A program made the position numbers and the translations under genes. The notes under the pieces are model-generated. The model searched no databases. It was not told the DNA's origin and saw only the letters and a program-made list of their open reading frames with translations. Positions 1 through 21,111 of a DNA stretch of 21,111 bases are shown one piece after another (position 1 is the stretch's first letter; every line of letters begins with the position of its first letter). This DNA is from Chthonomonadales bacterium. GTDB lineage: Bacteria > Armatimonadota > Chthonomonadetes > Chthonomonadales > Chthonomonadaceae. The stretch covers positions 1 through 21,111 of the forward strand of contig JBBQPO010000080.1 of the NCBI GenBank assembly GCA_038217285.1, read 5' to 3'.

Positions 1-139
1 CGTCCGTACAGCCATAATATATCACCCGCGTAGCTTCGCTCCAGACCGTTCAGATTGAAACGGAATCAGTGTTCATTTTGAACGCGATTCAGTGTTCATT
101 TTGAAACGGAATCAGTGTTCAAATTCGCCGGAATGTACA
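1..139 (+). mobile_element. Terminal region of an IS21-family-like insertion sequence (rest of element lies left of the window)
   Basis: Four tandem 23-bp repeats end in ...CCGGAATGTACA at 139, which reads 5'-TGTACATTCCGG... inward. Multiple subterminal transposase-binding repeats and TG...CA ends are typical of IS21-family termini. No transposase is visible in the window. Confidence 0.65.
48..139. repeat. 4 x 23-bp imperfect tandem repeat, consensus GTTCAttTTGAAaCGGAATCAGT
   Basis: Units: 48-70 GTTCAGATTGAAACGGAATCAGT, 71-93 GTTCATTTTGAACGCGATTCAGT, 94-116 GTTCATTTTGAAACGGAATCAGT, 117-139 GTTCAAATTCGCCGGAATGTACA. There are no spacers. Confidence 0.95.
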
Positions 140-1707
140 GACAGACCATACAGATGAAGCAGGTCCATTACCTCACGGTAGCTCTTCTCATTGAAACGTA
201 AGATCTCCTGAAGTTCGCTATCCGTTCTGCCGGCGATATCTCTTAATGCCCGGACGCCTCCCCGTTTCAGGCGATTGTAGGTTCTTACCGTCAGGTCCAC
301 GTCCAGAATGGGTGTCTCCGCGCCTCTGGGGTCGGGAGGTAAGGGCTCAGGTGCAGGGAATGCCTTGCGGAGCTCTCGCGCGGATTCGGCTAAGCTGGCC
401 CAGAACGCATCCTCGCTCATGGTAGCCCTAGGTGCAGCATGGACGTCGTGCAGGAGTCCGGAAATTAGATGCTCGAACCCGTCGTCGGCATGGTTGTCCC
501 GAAAGTATTTCTCACATGCGGGACACATACGTAGATGGCAGGCTTGCACAATGCTTAGGGTTGAATACCGAGTAGTTTTTTCTCCGATATTACAGCGGAG
601 CACCTCACGTATCGCAGCCCGCATGTGCGGGCAGTCTATCGTCTCCCAGCACCACTGGCGACAGAGCGAGCAGCCGTCGAGATGGTCATAAAGAGGAACG
701 TCCTTCTCTTCATAGTAGGCGGCATAGGTGTACCCGCGCGCCTCCAATAGCGACATGCGAGTCTTTGCACACTGGGGAAGAGCTTCCCTGTCAAGGACGA
801 AGGCAGGCGACCCCTCGTCAGTACTCCATGATATTTTTGCCCGTTTCAGGTGCATAAGCAGGCTAGACTCCCGCTCGCTACGGTTGGCTCCCGCCTTCTC
901 CAGCATTTCGGCGATGTCGTAATGGTCCTGGCCGATGGCGAGCGTACAGGGGGTTTCATTATCTCCCCGCTGGCCGTGGACTTCCGCGCCTGCGCTAAGC
1001 AAAAGTGCGACGCTCTCTACCCGTTGTGGGTGTCCTATCCCTGGAGTATCGATCGCGTGCGAGAGAGCAGTTTCGCCTGTACCGCTCCGGGTATTGACAT
1101 CTGCGCCAGCATCCAGCAGAAGACGCAGTACATCAGGCGAGAACGTGGCTTCAATCAGCGGCGTGGCACCTTCGCGGTTACCCTCGTTCACAGGCGCGCC
1201 TGCCTCCAGGAGGAGGGAGACTGCGGCTGCATCTCCGCCGCGCACGGCGTAGACCAGCGCAGTGTTCCCCGCCTCATCAGTTGCCCCAAAATCCGCACCC
1301 GCTTCCAGGAGGCGCCTGAGAACAGCTATATTCGTCCTTTGCGCCATCATCAGCGCCGTTCGACCCGCTGGGTGCGGATACCACATCGAGCGATCATCCG
1401 GATTGGCCCACGATGCCAGATTTACCTGCGCGCCTGTCCGCAGAAGCATATCGACGGTGAGGGTATGACCATTACGCGCAGCAAGCATAAGTGCGGATGT
1501 TCCAAGTGCATCCAGCGAATCGATGGGAATCCCCTCACTCAAGAGGAAGTCGAGCATCTCTGTATGCCCACTCATGGCGGCCATCTGAAGGGCACCTCTT
1601 CCCAATTCATCGCACGCAAAAAGATCGGCTCCCTGGGCTTTCAGAAAGCGGGCGCTCAAGATATCCCCTCGACCGACTGCCTCAAGGAACCGCTCGTCTG
1701 TAGTCAT
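112..1707 (-). CDS. Ankyrin-repeat protein with two HxxxCxxC (zf-HC2/ZAS-type) zinc fingers and a C-terminal RNA polymerase alpha-CTD-like domain
   Basis: The N-terminal ~270 aa contain repeated ankyrin motifs (GxTAL/PLxxA...LLxAGAxVN). HLDGCSLC (661-684) and HLRMCPAC (514-537) are each preceded by an upstream Cys. The C-terminal TPILDVDLTVRTYNRLKRGG...NEKSYREVMDLL matches the alpha-CTD pattern (LELTVRSANCLK...GKKSLTEIKDVL in E. coli). Confidence 0.85.
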   Translation of the reverse strand: MTTDERFLEAVGRGDILSARFLKAQGADLFACDELGRGALQMAAMSGHTEMLDFLLSEGIPIDSLDALGTSALMLAARNGHTLTVDMLLRTGAQVNLASWANPDDRSMWYPHPAGRTALMMAQRTNIAVLRRLLEAGADFGATDEAGNTALVYAVRGGDAAAVSLLLEAGAPVNEGNREGATPLIEATFSPDVLRLLLDAGADVNTRSGTGETALSHAIDTPGIGHPQRVESVALLLSAGAEVHGQRGDNETPCTLAIGQDHYDIAEMLEKAGANRSERESSLLMHLKRAKISWSTDEGSPAFVLDREALPQCAKTRMSLLEARGYTYAAYYEEKDVPLYDHLDGCSLCRQWCWETIDCPHMRAAIREVLRCNIGEKTTRYSTLSIVQACHLRMCPACEKYFRDNHADDGFEHLISGLLHDVHAAPRATMSEDAFWASLAESARELRKAFPAPEPLPPDPRGAETPILDVDLTVRTYNRLKRGGVRALRDIAGRTDSELQEILRFNEKSYREVMDLLHLYGLSVHSGEFEH

Positions 1708-10274: not shown

Positions 10275-11623
10275 CCATACACCGACCGATACGCAGGCTC
10301 GGGAGTATTACGCTCTTTGTAGCCCTCCTTGGCAGCCATTCGCTTCTTCTCGCTCACGCGCAGACGCTCGGAGCGGACCAACCCAAATTAGCGGGGCCAC
10401 TCTCGGTTGCGCGGGCCGTGCAAACCGGCTTACGCGAGAACCTGATGCTACGGGCCGCCCGCGCGGATGTGGCGGCGGCGGCAGCGGAGACGCGTGTTGC
10501 CAAAAGCCAGACCCGGCCCCAGGTTTCCGCCAACACCTATCTGTCCTACGGGGATTTCAGCAACATCTTAAACACCGCGCCGAGTGTCGCGCCGACAAAC
10601 TACCTCAACGTCCCCTCGCAAGGGTTTGCCGATCAAAACGTGACCCTTATGGCTCCGCTCTACACCAGCGGGCGCTTGAGCAACCTGGTGCGCGCCGCCT
10701 CCCTGCGGGAACGCGCGGTGACTCAGGATGTCGGTGGCGTTCAGGCGGATACGGGTCTGCGCATCAAAGAGGCGTACTACCGCGCTCTGCTGACCGGCGA
10801 GGTCATCAAGGTGGCTCAGTCGCGTGTCGACGCCGATATCGAACTTGTCCGAAACGCTCAGGCGCTCTTTACCGCAGGGAAAGGACTGGAAGCGTCCGTA
10901 CGCCGGGTGGAGGCTGAGCGCGCAGACGCAGACCGCGCGCTGACGACCGCCCGTAACAATCAGGCCAAAGCCCTTCTTGATCTCAAGGCTGCGATGGGTG
11001 TTCAGCTCGGCTCCGACATCACGCTCGCCGACGCCCTTACCTTTGCGCCCCCCTCCGGAGACCTCGCAAAGCAGCTTGCGGACGCCGCGCAGACGCGTCC
11101 GGAGCTGCTTGCCTCCCGCTCCCGCGTGCAAGCGGCAGAGGCGCAGACACGGTCCGTGCGCGGCTCGCAGGGGCCGCAGGTGGCCGGGATGGCTATGGCG
11201 GACGGGTTTACCTCGCATCCCCTTGGTACCCGTGAAGGCTATACCGTCGGTATCGTCATCAGTCTGCCGCTTCTGGACGGCGGCCAGCGCAGAGCCGAAA
11301 CGGCCCTGGCCCGTGCGCATGCGGAGCGTGCCGACGCCGAGCGGCGCGACCTGGAGCTCCGGATAGCGAACGAGGTAACGCAGGCTTGGCTGGATGTCGG
11401 GACGGCGGCCGAGAACTACCGCAGCGCACAGACTGGGCTCCAGTCGGCACAGGCTTCTTATGACGTCACCGCGCTGCGGGTGCAAAACCAGAAGGGGATC
11501 CTGGTCGAACAGCTCGATGCGCTCGCCGCTGTCGTCCAGGCGCGGGGCAGTGTGGCGCAGGCGCTCTACGATCACGCGCTCGCCGTCGCTCGGCTTCAGC
11601 GCGCTGTGGGGAGGCCAGAGTGA
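10271..11623 (+). CDS. TolC-family outer-membrane efflux protein
   Basis: GTG overlaps the upstream TGA (GTGA). Signal peptide, LSVARAVQTGLRENLML, two OEP repeats (PLYTSGR, RPEL, SLPLLDGG) and terminal LQRAVG. Confidence 0.9.
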   Translation: MTIHRPIRRLGSITLFVALLGSHSLLLAHAQTLGADQPKLAGPLSVARAVQTGLRENLMLRAARADVAAAAAETRVAKSQTRPQVSANTYLSYGDFSNILNTAPSVAPTNYLNVPSQGFADQNVTLMAPLYTSGRLSNLVRAASLRERAVTQDVGGVQADTGLRIKEAYYRALLTGEVIKVAQSRVDADIELVRNAQALFTAGKGLEASVRRVEAERADADRALTTARNNQAKALLDLKAAMGVQLGSDITLADALTFAPPSGDLAKQLADAAQTRPELLASRSRVQAAEAQTRSVRGSQGPQVAGMAMADGFTSHPLGTREGYTVGIVISLPLLDGGQRRAETALARAHAERADAERRDLELRIANEVTQAWLDVGTAAENYRSAQTGLQSAQASYDVTALRVQNQKGILVEQLDALAAVVQARGSVAQALYDHALAVARLQRAVGRPE

Positions 11624-13959
11624 ATCATAGGATGCAAGCCTTTCTTAAGGAACATGGACAAGCGATGAATGTACGAATTATTGCCCTTCTCGTACGCTTA
11701 CTCTGCGCACTCTGTTTGGCGCTGATCGCGCCGATTACTGCGCTTGCCGGGCCCACGACCGAGGCCGGACCCTATCGCATCGAGCTGGCGACCAGTCCGG
11801 ATGTGATCGTCGTGGGCAAGGGGAAGCTGCTGCTCAAGATTACGGACGCCTCCGGCAAACCCGTCGAAGGGGCCAGGATCATGGCTCTGGCGAAGATGCC
11901 GGGCATGAACATGGGCGAGCGCGAGCAGCCCGCCGCAGCCCAGCCTGGTCAGCCCGGCGTCTATGCCGCCCCGGCGCAGTTCGCGATGGAGGGCGGGTAC
12001 GAGGCGACGATACGGATCGAAGGCACCGCAGGCACAGCGACAGCGACACTCTCCTTGACCACAGGGCAGAGCACGGGACCGCTGTCCGGTTCAGGCGCTG
12101 CCTCCGGCGCTTCAGCGTCTTCCGCCCCTACAAGCGGCCGCGGGTTTCGCCTGCTTCCGCTCTTGCCCTGGATCGGCGGCGTGCTGCTGATCGCCTTTGT
12201 GCTCCAGCGGATGCGGCAAAGCGGGCAAAAACTCCACTTCAAGGGAGTCTTCAACCGCACCGTACTCGTTGAAATGTTACTGATGGCACTGTTCCTGGCA
12301 GGAGCCTACTACGCCGTGAGTCACTTCCGCCGGCCGGGAGCGATGACGCCTATGGAAGCGCAGTCCATGGAGATGAATCTTCCTGCGCCTCAGGGCACGG
12401 CCCCCGTAGAGTTGGCCACGGTGACGGAAGGTCCGCTTCAGAGCACGGTGCGCTATACGGGGCAGGCCGTGGGGTATGTGGAGCAGGACGTCTCGCCCCG
12501 CATCACCGGAGTCCTTGTCTCTATGCCGCTCTATGTCGGAGACCGGGTGAGACGGGGACAGATCGTGGCCCGTCTCGATACCTCGCAGAGCGCCCCTCAG
12601 GTCGCCAGTCAGCAGGCGGGCGTGATCATGGCGCAGGAGGGAACCGCCGTCGCAGAGAAGGATTACGAGCAGGCTCTCTCCCTGGTGTGGCAGGCCGAAG
12701 CCGAAGTCGGCATGAAGACCGGAGCCGTCGACTCGGCGCGCGCGGACATCACGACTGCGCAGGACGAGCGCACAAGCGCCCAGGCAAATCTTACGGCGGC
12801 TCAAACCATGGTCGGGGATGCGAACGCCCAACTTCAAGCGGCGCAGGCCGATCAGCGGTACTGGCGACAGGAGATCGACCGCGAAAAATCTCTGCTCGCA
12901 GCCGGAGCCGTGACACGTGACGAGTTTCAGCGCGAAACGGCGCAGGCGGAAAATGCCGACGCCAAAGTGCGGCAGTCACAGGCGCGGATAGACCAGACGC
13001 AGGCGCAGGTCGCAGCCGCTGTCTCAGGCGTCCACAAAACCGATTCAATGATCACGTCGGCACAGGCAAAGCTCACGCAGGCCCTATCGGACCTGACCGC
13101 GTATCACGCGCATGTCCATTCCGAAGAGGCGGCCGCGATTGCCGCCCGGCAGAAGATCAAGCAGGCGCAGGCAGGCGTTGCACAGGCGCGTGCCGGTCTC
13201 GCCGGGGCGGCGGCCACACGCGGCTACAGCGAAATTCGCTCGGAGACGGACGGCGTCGTCACGCAGCGGGTGATCAGCCCCGGCGTACTCGTGAACCCGG
13301 GCCAGACCATCCTGAAAATCGCCCAGATCTCTCCGATCCGCTTACAGGCGAACGTCGCCGAAAACGACCTGGCGCGGGTCCGGGTGGGAGGCTCGGTGCT
13401 GATACACAGCCAGGGCGCTTCGGGAAAATTCCTTCCAGCGCGCATCAGCTCGATCGCGCCTTCTGTCGATCCGACTTCGCGTACCGGCGTCGTTGAAGCC
13501 ATTGTCCCCAATCAAGACGGTCGCTTACTGCCCGGCCAGTACCTTGCGATGGACCTCCTGACAGGACGAGACGCGAACGCGCTGCGCATTCCGACCCGCG
13601 CCATTCGCCACCATACGCCTCCTTCCGGCGGCGTCATCTCCACAAAGACCGCGGCCTATGTCTGGGTTGCGGAGCCTGTCGCCGGCCAGGAGAAGCAGTA
13701 CACGGTGCAGGAGATAGTGGTGCAGACGGGCCTGACCGATGCAACCGGCACCGAGATCGTCTCGGGCCTGAAGGCGGGGCAGCAGGTCGTGGTCGCGGGC
13801 CAGGACTACCTCAAAGACGGAGACACGGTCTCTCCCGTCAGCGCGCCGGAAGCATCTGGAGGAGGCGCCATGCCGAATATGCCAGGCATGTCCAATACGC
13901 CGAGCCCGAACAGGGGCTCCCTGCAGGGAATGCCCGGAATGAACGGAGGCGCGAGGTGA
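11620..13959 (+). CDS. RND periplasmic adaptor (membrane-fusion protein) with N-terminal YtkA/FixH-like domain and Met-rich tail
   Basis: N-terminal DASGKPVEGA..KMPGMNMG..PGVY..FAMEGGY (YtkA-like), two internal hydrophobic segments, lipoyl halves (VGDRVRRGQIVARLD; IRSETDGVV..PGVLVNPGQ), a long coiled coil, VDPTSRT and GLKAGQQVVVAGQ. GTGA coupling at both ends; alternative ATG at 11665. Confidence 0.88.
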   Translation: MNHRMQAFLKEHGQAMNVRIIALLVRLLCALCLALIAPITALAGPTTEAGPYRIELATSPDVIVVGKGKLLLKITDASGKPVEGARIMALAKMPGMNMGEREQPAAAQPGQPGVYAAPAQFAMEGGYEATIRIEGTAGTATATLSLTTGQSTGPLSGSGAASGASASSAPTSGRGFRLLPLLPWIGGVLLIAFVLQRMRQSGQKLHFKGVFNRTVLVEMLLMALFLAGAYYAVSHFRRPGAMTPMEAQSMEMNLPAPQGTAPVELATVTEGPLQSTVRYTGQAVGYVEQDVSPRITGVLVSMPLYVGDRVRRGQIVARLDTSQSAPQVASQQAGVIMAQEGTAVAEKDYEQALSLVWQAEAEVGMKTGAVDSARADITTAQDERTSAQANLTAAQTMVGDANAQLQAAQADQRYWRQEIDREKSLLAAGAVTRDEFQRETAQAENADAKVRQSQARIDQTQAQVAAAVSGVHKTDSMITSAQAKLTQALSDLTAYHAHVHSEEAAAIAARQKIKQAQAGVAQARAGLAGAAATRGYSEIRSETDGVVTQRVISPGVLVNPGQTILKIAQISPIRLQANVAENDLARVRVGGSVLIHSQGASGKFLPARISSIAPSVDPTSRTGVVEAIVPNQDGRLLPGQYLAMDLLTGRDANALRIPTRAIRHHTPPSGGVISTKTAAYVWVAEPVAGQEKQYTVQEIVVQTGLTDATGTEIVSGLKAGQQVVVAGQDYLKDGDTVSPVSAPEASGGGAMPNMPGMSNTPSPNRGSLQGMPGMNGGAR

Positions 13960-16900
13960 GCCAGATACCGTCCCATAAGAATGCGCCCGCTACGCCGCCG
14001 CCGGGGCACCGCATGAACGCGCTTCACTTAATCCATAAATGGTCCATCGAGCATCCTTATGCGGTGATCGCCTTCTACGTGGCGATGATGGGCCTGGCCT
14101 GGATGACCATCAGCCACACCATGCCGCGTCGATTCGCGCCCTATGTGGAAAGTCCTATGATCGGGGTCGTCACCATGATGCCGGGGCTCTCCGCCCAGGA
14201 GATGGAGATCTACGTCAGCAAGCCCATCGAAGAGCAGTTGATCAACGTCAAAGGGCTGCGCTATATTCGCTCGAACTCGCAAAACGGGTTCTCGATCGTG
14301 ACGCTTCAGTTCCCCTACGGCACCAATATGCAGCGCGCGATTGTGGATATTCAGGCGCTCATGAACGTCACGCAGTCCAACCTGCCCGCGACGGGTGCGA
14401 ACCTAAAACCCTCCTGGGTCGTGCCGATCGATCCGCTCAATCTGCCCATTCTCACATTGAGTCTGCGCGGGGATCCGAAAGCGGGCTGGGACGCGGTGCG
14501 GGCGCGCGAGTTCGCCGATAACACGGTCGTGAACCGCATAAAGGAAGTTCCGGACGTCTACTCCGTCGTGCCCTTTGGCGGCTATCGGCGGCAGATGCAG
14601 GTGGTTGTGGACCGCGAGAAACTGGCCGCCTACCGGCTCTCTATTTTAGACGTCAAAAACGCCATTGATCGCTACAACGTCAGCCGTCCGGCAGGTACGC
14701 TGACGAGTGGCGCGCAGGAGGGAATCGTGCGCGTCGATACGCGCGCCCTGAGTGCGGAAGATATCCTGGGCTATCCGATTACGAGCGTCGGCAGCGACGC
14801 TTCCGCGTCCGGGTCATCACCTTCCGGCGGAGCGCCTGCGGGCGGTGGCGGGGGCGGCATGGGAGGTGGAGAGGCGCCCGGTGCCGCGCCTACGCCCTCC
14901 GCGCCGGTCGGTGCGTTGCGTTCGCCGCGCGTGATCTATGTGCGCGATGTGGCGCGAGTCGTGGATACGCACTTCGAGCGCCGAAGCGGCTATCACTACC
15001 TTAAGCACGAGCCGGGTACGAAAGGCGAGGTTATTCCCTCCATCGAAGTGTCGGTCATCCAGGATCCGGGGGCCAGTTCGGCGACCGTGGTTCCCGCCGT
15101 CATGAAGGTCATCAACCAGCTCGAAGACGAGAATCCTGGCCTGCACTTCGACGTCTCCTACGACAACGCCCACTTCGTGAACATTCTCTTTCACAACGTG
15201 TGGGAAGAGCTTCTGACCGCCGTCCTTCTCACGGGCATCGCCATCTTGTTCTTCTTGGGAGAGTGGCGGGGAACGCTCATCGCGATGATCGCGCTTCCCA
15301 CATCCCTTGCGATCGCCGTGATGATGATGGTGCCATTCGGCATGACTTTCAACAGCGGCACCCTCATCGGCCTGCTCCTCGCTATCGGTCGGCTTGTCGA
15401 TGACAGCATTATCGACATTCACGCGGTGGAGCGTCATCTGCGGATGGGGAAGGACCCGAAGACCGCGACCATCGACGGCATTGCGGAAGTACGCCTGGCG
15501 GTAATCGCCTCGACGATCATGATCGTGCTTGCCCTCTCACCGCTGCTCTTTTCAGGGGGGATCACGCAGATCATGTTCAAAGAGCTGGTGTGGCCGCTGA
15601 TCTTCGGCCTGCTGGCCTCGATGCTGGTCTCCTTTACGTTGACCGCCCTGCTCTGCGCGAACCTTTTGCGGCCGGAAAGCGCGCGGGAGACAGACCGAAA
15701 GCATCCCATTATCAAGTGGCTCTACGTCGTGCTCGACCCGTTCCAGCGGTTCTTAGACCGACTGGACGGTGGTTACGGGCGCCTGCTTCGCTGGATGCTG
15801 AAGCACCGATTCGCAAACATGGTCCGCGTCTTCTTAACCCTCATCGTCGGGTTTACCTTCTACTACTTCATCGGCAGTGAGATGATGCCGCTCGCCGATG
15901 TCGGTCAGGCCAATGGTCTTTTGGAGATGGCTCCCGGCACCTCCTATGCCGAAACAGAACGGGCGGTCGGGCAGCTTGAGCGTATCCTGCAGAAGTACCC
16001 GGAGGTGGAGAAAGCAAGTATCGAAATAGGCGCCGAGACCATGTTTGAGAGCTGGACCCCATTCTACACCGGCTACCAGATGCCCCAGGTAAACGGGGCC
16101 TCCATGATGCTGACCTTCAGCGACAAGGATAGCCGCAAGCGCACGATTTTTACTATTATCGACGCGGTCCAAAAGGAGGCCCTACACACCATCCCCGGCA
16201 TTCGGCGCCTGCAGATCAAGGAGATGGGCAGCGACGTCATGGCAACCTCTGCCGCCCCTGTCCATGTCAATATCTTTGGCCCGGACTTAAAGGAACTCGA
16301 CAAGCTGGGCGAGGAGGCGCTCGGGGTCGCCAGGAAGATGCCGGAGATCTTCCAACCCGGAACGACCTGGACGATAGGACTGCCGGATTATCAGATCAAA
16401 GTCGATCCGCAGCGGGCGCAGGAGGTCGGGCTCTCGCCGGAGAGCATTTCGCAGCAGGCCTACTATGCACTAAGCGGGGGGCTGACAAACGAGTTTTATC
16501 GGTTGCCCAACCTGAGGCAGGATACCATCCAGGTGCGCTACGAGCAGAAGGACCGGGCGAACGCGCAGAGTCTGGAGAACCTGTATCTGACAACCCCGGA
16601 CGGACGGCAAATTCTGCTCAAGTCGGTCGCGACTATCGAAGACGGCAATGCCCCAACCGTCATCGAGCACGACGGTTTGAAGCGGGTGATCGGCATTACG
16701 GGCTACTACCGTACAGAGGCGCTCCCGACGATGGATGTGGTGATGAACCTCGTTGCCAACATCTATGCCGGTAATAAGAAGTTAGGTATCCAACCGATAA
16801 ACTTTCCGCCCGGCTACGGCATGGAGATGCGCGGCGACATGACGGAAATGATGGACTCCTTCCGTCGCATGATCAGCGGCCTGACGCTGGCGCTCGCGCT

Positions 16901-17462
16901 CATGTACCTCGTCCTCGTGGTGCAGTTCCGGGGCTTCCTGCAACCGCTGCAGATGATTGCCTCCCTGCCGCTCGAGCTTGCGGGCGTCTTTACCGCGCTG
17001 TGGCTGGCGCACCAATCGTTTTCAACAGTCTCTATTCTAGGCATTATCGTGCTGACCGGCATGGATATCACGACCGCGGTGCTGATGATCGACCTGATCA
17101 TGAAGTACCGGGACCGGGGCGTACCGCGAGATGAGGCCGTGATAAAGGCGTGTCCGGATAGGCTGCGTCCGATCCTGATGACGACAGGGATTACGATCAT
17201 CACGATGCTCCCCGTTGCTCTTGCGCCCAAGACAGGGCTGGACGCCTATCAGCCGCTTGCGACGACCGTGGTAGGGGGATTGCTTGTGGGGACTGTCTTA
17301 AGTCTTCTGGACATTCCCATCATGCACACCTATGTGGATGATCTCACGCGCTGGCTCACCAAGACGTTCCGCAACCGGGATTGGGAGTGGCCCGTGACGG
17401 AGGCAGACGACCTGCACGAGGTAGATGGCAGTGAATTAGGCGACGTGTCAAAGAAGCTATAA
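13956..17462 (+). CDS. RND-family efflux permease (AcrB/CusA superfamily)
   Basis: PGLSAQEMEIYVSKPIEEQL, TM4 AIGRLVDD, RLRPILMTT, PLATTVVGGL and the two-repeat RND topology over 1168 aa. Confidence 0.93.
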   Translation: MSQIPSHKNAPATPPPGHRMNALHLIHKWSIEHPYAVIAFYVAMMGLAWMTISHTMPRRFAPYVESPMIGVVTMMPGLSAQEMEIYVSKPIEEQLINVKGLRYIRSNSQNGFSIVTLQFPYGTNMQRAIVDIQALMNVTQSNLPATGANLKPSWVVPIDPLNLPILTLSLRGDPKAGWDAVRAREFADNTVVNRIKEVPDVYSVVPFGGYRRQMQVVVDREKLAAYRLSILDVKNAIDRYNVSRPAGTLTSGAQEGIVRVDTRALSAEDILGYPITSVGSDASASGSSPSGGAPAGGGGGGMGGGEAPGAAPTPSAPVGALRSPRVIYVRDVARVVDTHFERRSGYHYLKHEPGTKGEVIPSIEVSVIQDPGASSATVVPAVMKVINQLEDENPGLHFDVSYDNAHFVNILFHNVWEELLTAVLLTGIAILFFLGEWRGTLIAMIALPTSLAIAVMMMVPFGMTFNSGTLIGLLLAIGRLVDDSIIDIHAVERHLRMGKDPKTATIDGIAEVRLAVIASTIMIVLALSPLLFSGGITQIMFKELVWPLIFGLLASMLVSFTLTALLCANLLRPESARETDRKHPIIKWLYVVLDPFQRFLDRLDGGYGRLLRWMLKHRFANMVRVFLTLIVGFTFYYFIGSEMMPLADVGQANGLLEMAPGTSYAETERAVGQLERILQKYPEVEKASIEIGAETMFESWTPFYTGYQMPQVNGASMMLTFSDKDSRKRTIFTIIDAVQKEALHTIPGIRRLQIKEMGSDVMATSAAPVHVNIFGPDLKELDKLGEEALGVARKMPEIFQPGTTWTIGLPDYQIKVDPQRAQEVGLSPESISQQAYYALSGGLTNEFYRLPNLRQDTIQVRYEQKDRANAQSLENLYLTTPDGRQILLKSVATIEDGNAPTVIEHDGLKRVIGITGYYRTEALPTMDVVMNLVANIYAGNKKLGIQPINFPPGYGMEMRGDMTEMMDSFRRMISGLTLALALMYLVLVVQFRGFLQPLQMIASLPLELAGVFTALWLAHQSFSTVSILGIIVLTGMDITTAVLMIDLIMKYRDRGVPRDEAVIKACPDRLRPILMTTGITIITMLPVALAPKTGLDAYQPLATTVVGGLLVGTVLSLLDIPIMHTYVDDLTRWLTKTFRNRDWEWPVTEADDLHEVDGSELGDVSKKL

Positions 17463-17485
17463 AGTCAAATAAATCTATCCCCGGT

Positions 17486-17512
17486 TGAACGGCGCTCTCT
17501 CGGGCGGTGTCT
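17486..17512 (+). promoter_or_regulatory. Possible ECF-type (autoregulatory) promoter
   Basis: TGAAC (17486-17490)-N18-GTCT (17509-17512), immediately upstream of AGGAGG (17521-17526) and the sigma gene. Matches the generic ECF AAC...GTC pattern. Confidence 0.35.
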
Positions 17513-17538: not shown

Positions 17539-18126
17539 ATGGCAGAAGCGCAATCAGACGAATATCTGCTGGGCAGGATCGGCGAACGGGATGCCGAGGC
17601 GTTCGAGACGCTCCTGACGCGGTACCAGGAGAGCGTTCGCGGGCATCTCCTGCGGACGGTGCGCGATCCCAACACGGCGGAAGACCTGACTCAGGAGGTC
17701 TTTCTGCGGGTCTGGACGCGCGGCGAACAGTGGAACGGCCATGGCCCCTTCCGTGTCTGGCTGTTCCGCATCGCCACCAACCTGGCCCTCAACTATCTCC
17801 GCACCGTGCGCCGCCGTCGGGAGTGTCCCCTGGAACTGCCCTCCGATGGCCCGGACGAAGAGAGCGTGCCGCGTATCCCCGACTGGATGATCGACCGCGC
17901 CAACGCCGGCCCAGAGCGCGCGCTGGAGCAGGGTGAGCGTCGCCGTCAGTTGCAGCATCTGGTCGAAGAGTTGCCGCGCGAGAAGCGCGAGGTGTTCCGC
18001 ATGGTCTTCGACGCCGAGATGGAGATACGCGATGTCGCCGAATCGCTGGGCGTCCCGCCCGGAACCGTCCGCTCCCGCCTCCACTACATCCGCAAACGCC
18101 TCGCCCGCGAATGGGACGAGGATTGA
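17539..18126 (+). CDS. ECF-family RNA polymerase sigma factor (sigma2 + sigma4)
   Basis: sigma2: DAEAFETLLTRY..AEDLTQEVFLRVW..FRVWLFRIATNLALNYLR. sigma4: LPREKREVF..IRDVAESLGVPPGTVRSRLH. ATG 17539 lies downstream of AGGAGG. Confidence 0.93.
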   Translation: MAEAQSDEYLLGRIGERDAEAFETLLTRYQESVRGHLLRTVRDPNTAEDLTQEVFLRVWTRGEQWNGHGPFRVWLFRIATNLALNYLRTVRRRRECPLELPSDGPDEESVPRIPDWMIDRANAGPERALEQGERRRQLQHLVEELPREKREVFRMVFDAEMEIRDVAESLGVPPGTVRSRLHYIRKRLAREWDED

Positions 18127-18166: not shown

Positions 18167-21111
18167 ATGGACATGTCTGCGCCCTGGCACAGGGCTTCGT
18201 TTGACCTCTTTATCCAGGAGAAGCTGCCGCAACTGCTGGCCACGCGTCTGCCGTTAAGCGGCTATCGCGTCACTTTCACGTTCGAGACAAGTTGCGGGAT
18301 CGACCTGGCCCTGGGAACGAGTGGGCACGAGGTAAACCTGGGTTTTGGTGAACTGCCACGACCCGATGCGGAAGGCGTTTTCTGGCGCAATGAGAGGCCC
18401 TATGTCGTGCTGCCGACCGCTTCCTGCGATGAACTCGATCAGGCGGAGATCCATTGCGTGGGCGAACAACTCCTGGCAGACATCACCTCCCGCCTCGGGG
18501 AAGCGCCGGACGAGCTGCCCTGGGATGAGGCGCTGGCCCGGCTCTGGCTGCCGCTCGACGGCTGGATACGCGGCTATATCGAGCGTACCGCGCAGGCCCT
18601 TGACACGACCAATCTCCTCAGCCGCAAGACGCATCTGCGCAGGCTCTCGCTGCCGAGTCGCGAAAAAATGTTTACGCCCGGTCACTATGGACGCGCCTGC
18701 CCCATCGAGACTCCGGAAGGGCCGAACATCGGTCGTGTGCTGGTGGTGGCGCGCGGTGCAACGATTCGGGAGGGCCGCCTGGAGATCGTCGATACCCGTC
18801 CCGAGATGATGCTCGGACTCTGCGCCTCGCTCATCCCCTTCCTGGAACATAACGAGCCCTGCCGTGCGCTCATGGGCGCGAACATGCTGCGGCAGTGGGT
18901 CACCCCAGCCGATCCGGAGCGTGCCCTGGTAGGCACGGGCAACGAGCCCGACGATCCGAACTTCTGGTCGGGACACAATCTGGTCACAGCTTACGTTCCG
19001 TGGGGGCTGGACAGCTTCGAGGATGCGATCGCCTTGAGCGAGACCTGCGCGCAACGCCTCTCCACGCCGAAGCCGATTCAGGTGGGCGATAAGCTGGGGA
19101 ATCGGCACGGCGCGAAGGGAGTGGTCAGCCGCATCCTGCCCGACGCCGAGATGCCGCATCTGTCGGACGGCACCTGCGTGGATCTGGTCTACGACTGCAT
19201 GGGGCTCTATTCGCGGATGAATTTCGGGCAGGTGCGCGAGGCGCTGATGGGACGCATCGCCCAGAAGGAAGGCGTTCCCGCGATCATGCCGCCTTTCGCC
19301 GCCCCTTCAGAAGCGGAGTTGAGAGAGCGCCTGAGGCGGGCCGGACTGCCCGAGGACGGTATGGAACAAGTGACGGAAGGCAAGGACGGAGCGCCGCTGG
19401 AGCGCCGGGCGACGGTCGGCGTGGTCTACTGGGGGCGTCTGATCCACACTGCCGCGCAGGGCTATTTCGCCTCGACGCTGCCGGAGGGCTGTCAGCGACA
19501 GGGAGAACTGGAATACTATGCGCTGCGCAACACGGGAGCAACCGCCAATCTGCGCGAGCATTTCTATCTCCGCGCCTCCGAAGCCTGCGATGCCGCGACG
19601 CTGGCCGAGCGTGTGCGAATCGGCACGCCGCTCACCTTCCCCATGCCTTCGCCACGATGTGCGGAGCTGATACGCCGTCTGGCAGCGGCCGGTATTCAGG
19701 CGGAGAAAGGACCGGAGGGGTTGACCTTCGCCTTTGTCGCTCCTACCGAGGAGATCCTGACGCTGGCGCAGCCGATCCCGCATCCCTGGCTGCCGGAGCG
19801 AACCCTGACGGAGGTCGGCGTCTCTTCGGCGGCGCTTCCGCAGTTTCGCGCACTGACGGAGGCCAATGCCCGAATGTCCCGACTCCTGAATATGGGAGCG
19901 CCTGAGACGCTGCGCGCCGGAGCGTTTTGGGAACTGGAGACTGCCGCTCAGCGCTATCTCAATGCGCTCGTTCCCGCATTGCAACTCCGCTTGCAGGCGC
20001 GTCCGATGTTTAACGGGCGGGCGGTCGCAACGCCCGGCGATCTGCGCTACGATCAGGTCGGAATTCCGGAGGAGATGGCCTGGACCCTGTTCGAGCCCCT
20101 GCTGGCACAGGAACTGGGGGAGGCTGCCCTGGTGCCCCGGACAGAGGCGACTGTGCGGCAACTCGATGCTCTGATGGCGCGCTCCTGGGTGCTTGTACAG
20201 CGTTCTCCTGTCATCGAGCCCACCGGCTTCCTGGCATTTCATCCGTTGCGGTGCGCCGGACAGGTCATTCGCCTGCATCCGCTGGCCAACCACTCCCTCA
20301 ACGCGGATTTCGACGGCGACATTCTGTCGATTTTTCTGCCGATCACCGAGGAAGCTCAGCGGGAGGCGGGAGAGAAACTCACGCTGGCCGGGCATCTGCA
20401 CCGTGAACCGGAACTATTGGGAAATTTCCTGCCTCTGCACTCTGCGCGTGCCGGACTGGCACTGCTGGCCCGTACCGCAGAAGGCCGCGAGGAGATCCGG
20501 CAACTCGCCGGTACAGCCTCCCCCTTGCCGGACAGTTCGCTGAATCGCGCCGGCCTGCTCACGCTGGCGCAAGAGGTGCTGACCACGCAGGGAGCGGAAG
20601 CCACTATCGCCGCTATGGACCGCCTGACGCGACGCGGATTCCAGAGAGCAAAGCGGTCCGGGCTCTCCCTCAGTCCCTTCCTAGGCGCGGGCTTCGCGCG
20701 GCCCGATCCGCCGCAGAACCCGAGTGCCGAAATCTGGACATACTGCACCCCTTACTCCACGACGGTCGTGCCTTTCTACCCACCGGCAAACGCCGAAATG
20801 TGGGAAGTCTACACGGAAGAGCTGATCGAGCGATTGCATAGGCACAGCGCCAACGACGATCTGGAGCCGTTCCTGGTTGCGGTACGCAGCGGCGCCCGAA
20901 GCAACTATCCGATCCTGCAAAAGTTTGTAGGAGCTTATGGGGTCGTAGAGGATGTGAAAGGCGAACGTGTCGCCATACAACACTCCCTGTGCGACGGAAT
21001 GACACCGGAGGAGTGCCATACGCTCTGTGTGGGAGCACGCAATGGAATCGCCCGCGCCGCCGCCGAACTGGAGCATGTCAGCCGTACCCTGCGCCAGTCC
21101 AATCTGCCCAC
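18167..21111 (+). CDS. Miniaturised single-chain RNA polymerase beta-beta' fusion protein (3' end outside window)
   Basis: AAGGAG RBS (18154-18159) and ATG 18167; the frame stays open for 981 codons to the window edge. Beta motifs: HYGRACPIETPEGPNIG 18683-18733, SLIPFLEHNEPCRALMGANMLRQ 18827-18895, FED 19016-19024, GDKLGNRHGAKG 19085-19120, SRMNFGQ 19211-19231, GCQRQGELEYYAL 19487-19525. Beta-prime motifs: LTLAQPIPHPWL 19757-19792, FNGRAV..QVGIPEEMAWTLFEP 20009-20098, NADFDGD 20300-20320, GFQRAKRSGLS 20636-20668, SGAR 20888-20899, GMTPEE..GARNGIA 20996-21052. Confidence 0.93.
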   Translation, partial: MDMSAPWHRASFDLFIQEKLPQLLATRLPLSGYRVTFTFETSCGIDLALGTSGHEVNLGFGELPRPDAEGVFWRNERPYVVLPTASCDELDQAEIHCVGEQLLADITSRLGEAPDELPWDEALARLWLPLDGWIRGYIERTAQALDTTNLLSRKTHLRRLSLPSREKMFTPGHYGRACPIETPEGPNIGRVLVVARGATIREGRLEIVDTRPEMMLGLCASLIPFLEHNEPCRALMGANMLRQWVTPADPERALVGTGNEPDDPNFWSGHNLVTAYVPWGLDSFEDAIALSETCAQRLSTPKPIQVGDKLGNRHGAKGVVSRILPDAEMPHLSDGTCVDLVYDCMGLYSRMNFGQVREALMGRIAQKEGVPAIMPPFAAPSEAELRERLRRAGLPEDGMEQVTEGKDGAPLERRATVGVVYWGRLIHTAAQGYFASTLPEGCQRQGELEYYALRNTGATANLREHFYLRASEACDAATLAERVRIGTPLTFPMPSPRCAELIRRLAAAGIQAEKGPEGLTFAFVAPTEEILTLAQPIPHPWLPERTLTEVGVSSAALPQFRALTEANARMSRLLNMGAPETLRAGAFWELETAAQRYLNALVPALQLRLQARPMFNGRAVATPGDLRYDQVGIPEEMAWTLFEPLLAQELGEAALVPRTEATVRQLDALMARSWVLVQRSPVIEPTGFLAFHPLRCAGQVIRLHPLANHSLNADFDGDILSIFLPITEEAQREAGEKLTLAGHLHREPELLGNFLPLHSARAGLALLARTAEGREEIRQLAGTASPLPDSSLNRAGLLTLAQEVLTTQGAEATIAAMDRLTRRGFQRAKRSGLSLSPFLGAGFARPDPPQNPSAEIWTYCTPYSTTVVPFYPPANAEMWEVYTEELIERLHRHSANDDLEPFLVAVRSGARSNYPILQKFVGAYGVVEDVKGERVAIQHSLCDGMTPEECHTLCVGARNGIARAAAELEHVSRTLRQSNLP

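Follow-up and report, generated by a model that had tools for sequence, protein, structure and literature searches.

The 3' end of a contig from a Chthonomonadales bacterium of the phylum Armatimonadota (GenBank assembly GCA_038217285.1, contig JBBQPO010000080.1; its whole length of 21,111 nt is called the window here) carries the gene of a fused beta-beta' mini RNA polymerase, in which both halves of the enzyme are encoded in a single open frame and whole domains of beta and beta' are absent. The mini-polymerase is a selected compact enzyme and not a product of decay, because its deletion endpoints are shared among homologues, its catalytic residues are conserved, its ratio of nonsynonymous to synonymous substitution rates (dN/dS) is 0.17 and its predicted structure is confident. 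The deletions had already become fixed in the protein ancestral to the family, which numbers several hundred members and is under purifying selection. Both double-psi barrels have been retained, as have the magnesium loop, the bridge helix and the arginines and lysines that bind NTP; what has been lost comprises the lobe, flap, zinc-binding domain, clamp head, lid, rudder and most of switch 3, together with the trigger loop and jaw as far as complete orthologues tell. The gene directly upstream encodes a sigma factor of the extracytoplasmic function (ECF) type, and we somewhat favour the reading that the two genes form a cassette, in which an ECF sigma factor and a single-chain beta-beta' core polymerase act as a sigma-directed transcription module.

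The polymerase gene lies at 18167..21109 on the forward strand, where 981 aa of the protein are present. The open frame starts at 17933 and runs off the 3' end of the contig; the start codon was placed at ATG 18167 because orthologues begin at MDMSAPWH and a GGAG-type ribosome-binding site (RBS) precedes that ATG by 8 nt. Approximately 41 residues of the C-terminus are missing at the contig end, given that orthologues are 1000–1023 aa in length. Pfam domains are matched in beta-then-beta' order, namely Rpb2_3 (E 2.2e-9), Rpb2_6 (E 2.1e-36) and Rpb1_2 (E 2.9e-12). The window is the entire contig, and its source is a 6.2-Mb metagenome-assembled genome of 459 contigs and 95% completeness. Canonical rpoB (an open reading frame, ORF, of 1371 aa) and rpoC (a 1581-aa ORF) were found on another contig of the same genome, and the mini-polymerase gene therefore encodes an extra polymerase and not the housekeeping one. 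Cellular RNA polymerases are machines of approximately 400 kDa made of five subunits; the complete mini-polymerase, with about 1000 aa and a mass of about 110 kDa, amounts to roughly a quarter of the normal enzyme.

The initial annotation of this DNA had read a series of clean, domain-scale deletions from the spacing of recognizable motifs. Its coordinates, motifs and spacings all proved exact upon translation, and formal alignments put the motifs where it had placed them. Three kinds of alignment were used: the family profile against E. coli RpoB and RpoC; profile-profile comparison (hhalign) against reference alignments of 21 RpoB and 19 RpoC sequences, which were built from canonical rpoB-rpoC loci (best 80 of 600 loci); and comparison of the predicted structure with solved structures. 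Since greedy hhalign (mact 0.1) gave meaningless alignment in unaligned stretches, local sub-alignments were used instead. The domain names and the E. coli domain boundaries are those we assume, and the residue correspondences were computed in the analysis.

The beta half of the chain opens with a beta1 (protrusion)-like N-terminal domain (18167..18451, residues 1–95), which hhalign places onto E. coli beta 32–146; family residues 9–82 align to this range with a probability of 83% and an E-value of 8.8e-6. The motif GELPRPDAEGVFWRNERPYVVLP is read at 18347–18415, and only 11 aa later IHCVGEQL follows at 18449–18472, of which IHCVGEQ falls on E. coli beta 453–459 in the profile alignment. From these two placements it follows that 306 residues of E. 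coli beta are replaced by 12, and the lobe, which had been declared missing, is indeed gone. The lobe junction itself (18416..18448) consists of TASCDELDQAE, 11 residues in place of about 300 (beta 147–452) in E. coli. The same loss is seen in the predicted structure, where model residues 2–138 pair with just 132 of the 384 residues of the Mycobacterium tuberculosis (Mtb) beta B1+B2 crystal chain 4kbj_A, and residues 3–147 align to a Thermus beta1 fragment. Fork loop 2 (18644..18688, residues 160–174) had been described as roughly halved, and 15 residues are counted between the R529 and G556 equivalents versus 26 in E. coli. The flap, whose loss lies beyond what the initial annotation covered, is replaced at 19052..19084 by a junction of 11 residues (296–306) standing for E. 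coli beta ~824–1056, which includes a lineage insert. Further alignment gaps in beta fall at 582–652, 708–785 and 1149–1176 in E. coli numbering. The switch-3 remnant (19448..19486) holds 13 residues from the H1237 equivalent to GCQRQGE versus 28 in E. coli, a gap of 15 residues, in agreement with the view that switch 3 is mostly gone.

In the family profile alignment the beta part extends to E. coli beta 1342, and its last motif, LAAAGIQAE, ends at 19705. It is followed by 17 aa, then by LTLAQPIPHPWL, and then by another 17 aa before the clamp helices begin. The beta/beta' junction (19706..19792, residues 514–542) thus contains a probable beta' N-terminal strand and then LTLAQPIPHPWL, which corresponds to E. 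coli beta' 103–116. HPWL/LTLAQPIPHPWL against beta' 103–126 was the top local match but falls short of significance when the sequence is taken by itself (E 0.08); the two were equated because model residues 522–981 align to Mtb beta' 13–880 over 452 residues (Z 16.8, rmsd 4.0). The model thus suggests that the 17-aa joiner is probably the beta' N-terminal strand and that the zinc-binding domain between the joiner and HPWL has been excised. No Cys occurs in residues 505–620 around this junction, and the claim that the four-Cys zinc-binding domain is skipped stands with the support of structure. The clamp coiled-coil (clamp helices) is retained at 19826..19969, matching E. coli beta' ~264–310, with model helices at 554–575 and 580–601; in the alignment onto beta' 267–310 it begins 17 residues past HPWL versus about 150 in E. 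coli, which bears out the loss of clamp head and lid. At the rudder/switch-2 junction (19970..20008, residues 602–614) a gap of 25 residues against E. coli beta' ~311–335 removes the rudder as had been claimed. FNGR then ends at 20020. Switch 2 retains its C-terminal half, the equivalents of R346, S350 and R352 being present in 65, 80 and 81 of the 91 family members. A further gap in beta' covers 511–566. The bridge helix (21005..21109; E. coli beta' 745–795, hhalign probability 81%, E 1.3e-5; model helix 947–978) is cut by the contig end. Complete orthologues carry just about 50 residues beyond it, and therefore the trigger loop and the jaw region are absent from them. Everything past the bridge helix in complete orthologues is thus, like the flap, a loss additional to those first described.

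Whether such deletions are shared was asked of 91 family members of 33–87% identity, a junction being scored as conserved when its spacing lies within 3 aa of that of the query. The lobe junction is conserved in 90 of 91 members, the flap junction in 89 of 91 and fork loop 2 in 80 of 90; spacing from the end of beta to HPW is kept in 86, from HPW to the clamp helix in 76, and from the clamp helix to SGR in 83 of the 91. Switch 3 is the least uniform junction in the family, with 63 of 91 members inside the same limit, and at every other junction 76–91 of 89–91 members agree. None of the 91 restores a deleted domain. The homologue alignment that had been suggested as a check therefore passed, and the argument that many in-frame deletions at domain boundaries reflect selection for a compact fold is upheld by endpoints common to these homologues, by the dN/dS and by the model. 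One further junction behaves differently: an insert of about 20 residues at 850–875 (window 20714–20791) was common only to the query and its closest homologue (P0002) in one alignment, and a length equal to that of the query occurs there in only 2 of 83 family members.

The part that remains is the catalytic part. The beta-side double-psi barrel aligns to E. coli beta 1057–1148 and carries the motif GDKLGNRHGAKG at 19085..19120 with the K1065 and K1073 equivalents, which are K in 85 and 87 of 91 members. Other NTP-binding or active-site positions of beta are kept as well, namely R678 (89), R1106 (90), H1237 (85), E813 (80) and D814 (85). On the beta' side, the catalytic magnesium loop NADFDGD (20300..20320; beta' 458–464) holds its three Asp, the equivalents of D460, D462 and D464, in 89, 89 and 88 members, and the R425 equivalent in 80; the N458 equivalent is N in 60 and D in 20 of the 91. 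Sequence identity to beta and beta' is about 30%, and the family profile matches bacterial beta (E 2.4e-70) and beta' (E 1e-48) in the PDB. Scores against the NCBIfam equivalogs are far below their cut-offs (rpoB TIGR02013, 199.5 bits versus 801.15; rpoC TIGR02386, 98.2 versus 963.5). We also looked at residues 143–183 (window 18593–18713), presumably equivalent to the rifampicin pocket. Most of the pocket residues are conserved among the 91 members (Q513 in 72, D516 in 57, H526 in 79, R529 in 83, P564 in 88), whereas the S531 equivalent is variable, its commonest residues being L (19/91) and R (17/91).

An AlphaFold model computed from the 91-sequence alignment is confident, with a mean predicted local distance difference test score (pLDDT) of 94.5 and a predicted template-modelling score (pTM) of 0.92, and is uncertain only at insert residues 854–871; an earlier model from 25 sequences had reached a pLDDT of 70.3, with the beta barrel under 50, and was not used. 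Residues 1–516 superpose on 512 residues of Xanthomonas beta (Z 27.0, rmsd 2.7) and residues 1–498 on 492 residues of clostridial beta 8i23_C (Z 29.3, rmsd 2.4). The same half superposes on Rpb2 of RNA polymerase II over 465–499 residues (Z 28–29) and on archaeal subunit B over 462 residues (Z 29.2), so that the part which has been kept is close to the core common to the three domains of life. Against a same-genus orthologue, dN/dS is 0.165 for the polymerase (dS 1.14, near saturation) and 0.127 for the sigma factor. The reading frame is intact in all 15 loci compared (the window plus 14 from genomes of the same phylum), 14 being complete and the window copy cut only by the contig end. The mini-polymerase is very probably an active polymerase. 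The opposite extreme, a decayed or non-catalytic relic serving for instance as a sigma-binding sink, has in its favour that over half of beta and beta' is gone and that the equivalog cut-offs are missed so widely; we hold it to be highly improbable in view of the conserved catalytic residues and purifying selection, the intact frames, the uniform endpoints and the compact, confident model.

The family is large and apparently previously undescribed. Of 8000 candidates, 929 proteins reached E≤1e-3; the 120 with the best scores are mostly about 1000–1060 aa long, and none of these has a functional name. In a representative library full-length members score about 490–917 bits, and canonical-type fused forms of more than 1500 aa begin at 236. 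The family is unnamed in Pfam, NCBIfam, PHROGs and PADLOC, and no publication on it was found in a full-text literature search that did not extend to Iyer and Aravind (2012) or to the supplementary material of the ECF reclassification. In the searched main text of that reclassification (PMC7826278) the polymerase neighbour is not mentioned. Within the phylum of the window the family is carried by 18 of the 301 genomes, which represent 14 of the 159 genera; in the window's own taxonomic family only 1 of the 17 other genomes has it. In the phylum with a Pirellulales-labelled genome 2 of the 201 genomes are positive, and in the phylum with a Myxococcales-labelled genome 0 of 201. Source labels of the homologues include Chthonomonadales/Armatimonadota, Chloroflexi, Hydrogenedentes and Poribacteria. 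In two atlas clusters, with 73 and 135 members, the phylum is recorded for a few members and is mostly Chloroflexota, and some homologues are carried on contigs of 6–8 Mb. Such a patchy distribution suggests horizontal transfer or repeated loss.

Viral and plasmid sources were also searched. No record among 50,697 phage and 72,556 plasmid records matched at a query coverage of at least 80%. In viral contigs, a single-protein query found 12 loci with relatives of 30–235 bits, mostly fusions of about 1800–2500 aa, and no family member; a family-alignment query (best 80 of 318 loci) likewise found neither a family member nor an adjacent sigma gene. The polymerases seen in these viral contigs have other reduced layouts and are not of this family. 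Loci L127–L135 and L139–L145 are single frames of about 1450–2830 aa in beta-then-beta' order, and loci such as L185, L213 and L181 have separate genes of about 890 and 1010 aa with beta' preceding beta.

The polymerase has one constant companion. In the window it is a dedicated ECF sigma factor of 195 aa at 17539..18126 on the forward strand, with its true start at ATG 17539. It matches Sigma70_r2 (3.9e-17), Sigma70_r4_2 (4.2e-13) and Sigma70_ECF (2.2e-5) in Pfam, exceeds the cut-off of the sigma70-ECF family TIGR02937 (111.2 bits versus 42.9), and consists of regions 2 and 4 only, with the size of about 200 aa and the architecture of the ECF group 4 type. In 15 of 15 loci the polymerase is immediately preceded, on its own strand, by an orthologue of this sigma gene, and within about 8 kb no other neighbour besides sigma is conserved in these loci. 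This holds also for a co-encoded anti-sigma factor, which is typical of ECF systems though not universal: none is conserved, and the sole conserved neighbour of sigma is the polymerase. When the 301 phylum genomes were searched with a sigma profile, the top 17 matches (185.8–319.4 bits) all adjoined a polymerase gene, and the next match scored 155.5. The sigma subfamily is therefore present in 17 of the 18 polymerase-bearing genomes versus 0 of the 283 others; in the 18th, the polymerase is represented only by a 3' piece at the end of a contig.

A predicted ECF-type promoter of the operon lies at 17485..17511 on the forward strand, 27 nt before the sigma ATG, and consists of a -35-like TTGAAC, a 16-nt spacer and a -10-like GTGTC (GAAC at 17487–17490, GTGTC at 17507–17511). 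The ORF finder had proposed TTG 17485 as the sigma start; this was rejected, as the TTG belongs to the -35 element. The pattern GAAC-N16-GTGTC recurs upstream of sigma in 15 of 15 loci, always with a spacer of exactly 16 nt and 14–38 nt before the start codon, and it looks like an autoregulated ECF promoter. Genome scans for further sites also brought up, in genome G000 (contig C1, near position 79606, forward strand), a GGGAAC-N16-GTGTC sequence 53 nt before a 205-aa ORF with an RBS, in apparently intergenic DNA, perhaps a promoter that serves a different ECF sigma gene, perhaps a chance match.

From these observations the following mechanism can be drawn up. The sigma factor would recognize the invariant GAAC-N16-GTGTC promoter before its own gene, its region 2 would dock on the clamp coiled-coil, the sole clamp element kept, and it would so direct the mini-polymerase to double-stranded promoters. 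The result would be a self-amplifying transcription module independent of alpha and omega. Elongation could proceed without a trigger loop as in YonO, with little pausing, no proofreading cleavage and lower fidelity. The coiled-coil, which we take to be the docking site of sigma region 2, retains equivalents of R278 and R281 in 64 of 91 members each. A complex prediction for polymerase residues 440–981 with sigma, both given as alignments, returned scores of 0.06 and 0.01 against a mark of 0.32, which counts neither for nor against binding. That sigma binds and directs the mini-polymerase is in our judgement a little better than an even chance. That the pair makes up the smallest sigma-dependent RNA polymerase of cellular type, an orthogonal and self-amplifying system of a chain of about 110 kDa, an ECF sigma factor of about 22 kDa and a promoter of 25 bp, is somewhat less than an even chance. 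Such a system would do without alpha, omega, flap, zinc-binding domain and trigger loop, and its sigma region 4 would need a placement that no known holoenzyme shows.

The initial annotation had instead suggested low processivity or a specialised role, such as the synthesis of short RNAs or primers or the use of single-stranded templates. This part is not supported, and the dedicated sigma factor, the promoter and the retained clamp coiled-coil argue against it. Published precedent does not support it either: according to the passages of PMC5467207 consulted, YonO, a single-chain polymerase without a trigger loop, is fast, highly processive, error-prone and unable to cleave, and RNA synthesis in vitro under mild conditions can dispense with the flap, lid, zipper, rudder and lobe. 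Promoter-directed transcription of double-stranded DNA is favoured because of the sigma linkage and the invariant promoter.

Several findings weigh against a sigma-directed mini-polymerase, and most of them are also what speaks for a different division of labour, in which sigma serves only the core enzyme of the host to switch the operon on and the mini-polymerase is a sigma-independent, specialised enzyme that makes short RNAs or primers, or transcribes templates that are nicked, single-stranded or pre-melted, an idea that goes back to the initial annotation. The gene that follows sigma in most ECF systems codes for a partner or regulator and not for a polymerase. The flap, whose tip we take to be the docking site of sigma region 4, is absent along with the zinc-binding domain and the lid; without it, the fixed -35/-10 spacing is easier to explain with the host core enzyme, since a rigid 16-nt spacer fits canonical holoenzyme geometry. 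In the clamp helices, the equivalents of R275 and E295, presumably contact positions of sigma-70, are replaced by A in 68 and 62 of 91 members. Scans for a regulon with the strict promoter pattern revealed no enrichment past the operon's own site: in this genome TGAAC-N15-GGTGTC has 3 sites, the operon's own promoter included, versus 2.9 expected; five other genomes gave 13 sites versus 5 in a reversed control, 5 of the 13 being the operons' own promoters; and in two relatives of 3.4–3.5 Mb the operon's own promoter is the sole site of the strict pattern. To these are added two points on the C-terminus, namely that the trigger-loop loss is read from orthologues only, the window copy having no C-terminus, and that the last 24 residues of complete orthologues resemble beta' 1331–1354, at a level that is not significant (E 0.22). 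Against the host-core alternative it counts that of the entire clamp the coiled-coil alone has survived, and that the sigma subfamily is absent from all 283 polymerase-free genomes, a linkage closer than a mere regulator would need. Enzymes without a lid are, in the portion of PMC6211774 at hand, impaired on single-stranded and not on double-stranded templates, and YonO is described in the consulted part of PMC5467207 as processive without these domains. Overall we regard this alternative as unlikely.

A mobile or conflict module is a third reading, compatible with either mechanism, in which the pair would be a back-up or decoy polymerase for times when phage or antibiotics disable the host enzyme, or a selfish, self-amplifying pair of genes; horizontal transfer would then account for the sparse distribution. 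Its patchy occurrence and flanks that differ in every locus would fit, as would the lack of jaw, flap and beta' N-terminus, surfaces that are presumably targets of phage inhibitors. The polymerase is however unmatched in PADLOC, no integrase, repeat or other mobile-element gene is conserved beside it in the 15 loci, the phage, plasmid and viral searches described above returned no family member, and the neighbours in the window are housekeeping genes, so that we think such a role distinctly unlikely. The sigma-directed cassette accordingly stays our preferred reading of the locus.

Essential parts of RNA polymerase have so far been studied via engineered deletions or in very divergent phage and plasmid enzymes. 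The mini-polymerase family is a natural deletion experiment within a bacterial lineage, whose remaining core superposes on bacterial, archaeal and eukaryotic enzymes, and an identity of about 30% to beta and beta' allows direct comparison. If sigma does drive the mini-polymerase, the minimal needs of sigma-dependent promoter opening become testable, a compact two-gene orthogonal expression system becomes available, and one may ask to what use a bacterium puts a second polymerase of its own.

The rest of the window encodes an efflux operon of the resistance-nodulation-division (RND) type, MinC, TrpF, a hydrolase of glycoside hydrolase family 44 (GH44) and tetratricopeptide repeat (TPR) proteins. 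The RND operon (10283–17462, forward strand) comprises an outer-membrane factor, an HlyD-type fusion protein bearing a YtkA domain at its N-terminus, and a pump of the AcrB family; it ends 23 nt before the sigma promoter and is not conserved beside the cassette in the other 14 loci. At the far end, 16 kb from the polymerase, a 531-aa protein (112–1707, reverse strand) joins ankyrin repeats to a C-terminal domain that matches the alpha-CTD of RNA polymerase, PF03118 (E 4.8e-10, 39.5 bits versus a cut-off of 23.8), an unusual fusion.

Several known systems resemble the mini-polymerase in part. K2ORF6p of the yeast killer plasmid pGKL2, a cytoplasmic virus-like element (K2ORF6p acts with K2ORF7p), and YonO were likened to it by their published descriptions, not by sequence or structure. 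The yeast enzyme is the closest in architecture, being an Rpb2::Rpb1 fusion of 982 aa in the part of PMC2919709 consulted, and the accessible text of PMC6211774 describes similar losses, with about half of the coding sequence deleted and the lid, rudder and most of the clamp missing. According to the same text it has no clamp coiled-coil, whereas the mini-polymerase keeps one, and its C-terminal beta' regions reside in a separate small subunit, whereas the mini-polymerase loci have sigma only. Its origin is reported as viral/eukaryotic; the mini-polymerase family in contrast scores best against bacterial beta and beta' and is paired with a sigma gene, which the yeast enzyme does not have.

YonO of the Bacillus prophage SPbeta, QDE-1, crAss-like gp66 and P23-45 gp96/gp64 also place both barrels in one chain of about 100 kDa, likewise without trigger-loop homology. 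These enzymes are however of phage or eukaryotic origin and sigma-independent, and share few residues with cellular polymerases, whereas the mini-polymerase matches beta at 2.4e-70. In structural comparison, Z against the mini-polymerase model is 27–29 for beta, 12.4 for QDE-1, 9.9 for gp96, 9.8 for P74 gp62 and 6.9 for crAss gp66. Full-length fused RpoBC proteins (PRK09603 and PRK14844, about 2800–2900 aa) have the same beta/beta' order but keep all domains, and the mini-polymerase scores 163 and 161 bits against their cut-offs of 5372 and 4632. The non-virion polymerases of phages AR9 and PhiKZ are reduced beta/beta' homologues without alpha or omega and appear among the structural neighbours (7s00_C, Z 24.0; 7ogp_C, Z 20.5); they are phage-borne and split into several polypeptides, whereas the mini-polymerase is fused. 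They use phage-specific promoter-recognition subunits and not a protein of the sigma-70 family. Compared with a canonical ECF holoenzyme, the mini-polymerase is one chain of about 1000 aa without flap or zinc-binding domain, and therefore without what we take to be the docking sites of sigma region 4, and it has no alpha or omega in the chain. Such holoenzymes, for example the Mtb sigma-H complexes (PDB 5zx2), resemble the cassette in their ECF sigma factor of regions 2 and 4, in their clamp helices and, if the predicted promoter is right, in a GAAC-type -35 element with a short -10 element; beta' chains of complexes of this type are among the top Foldseek matches.

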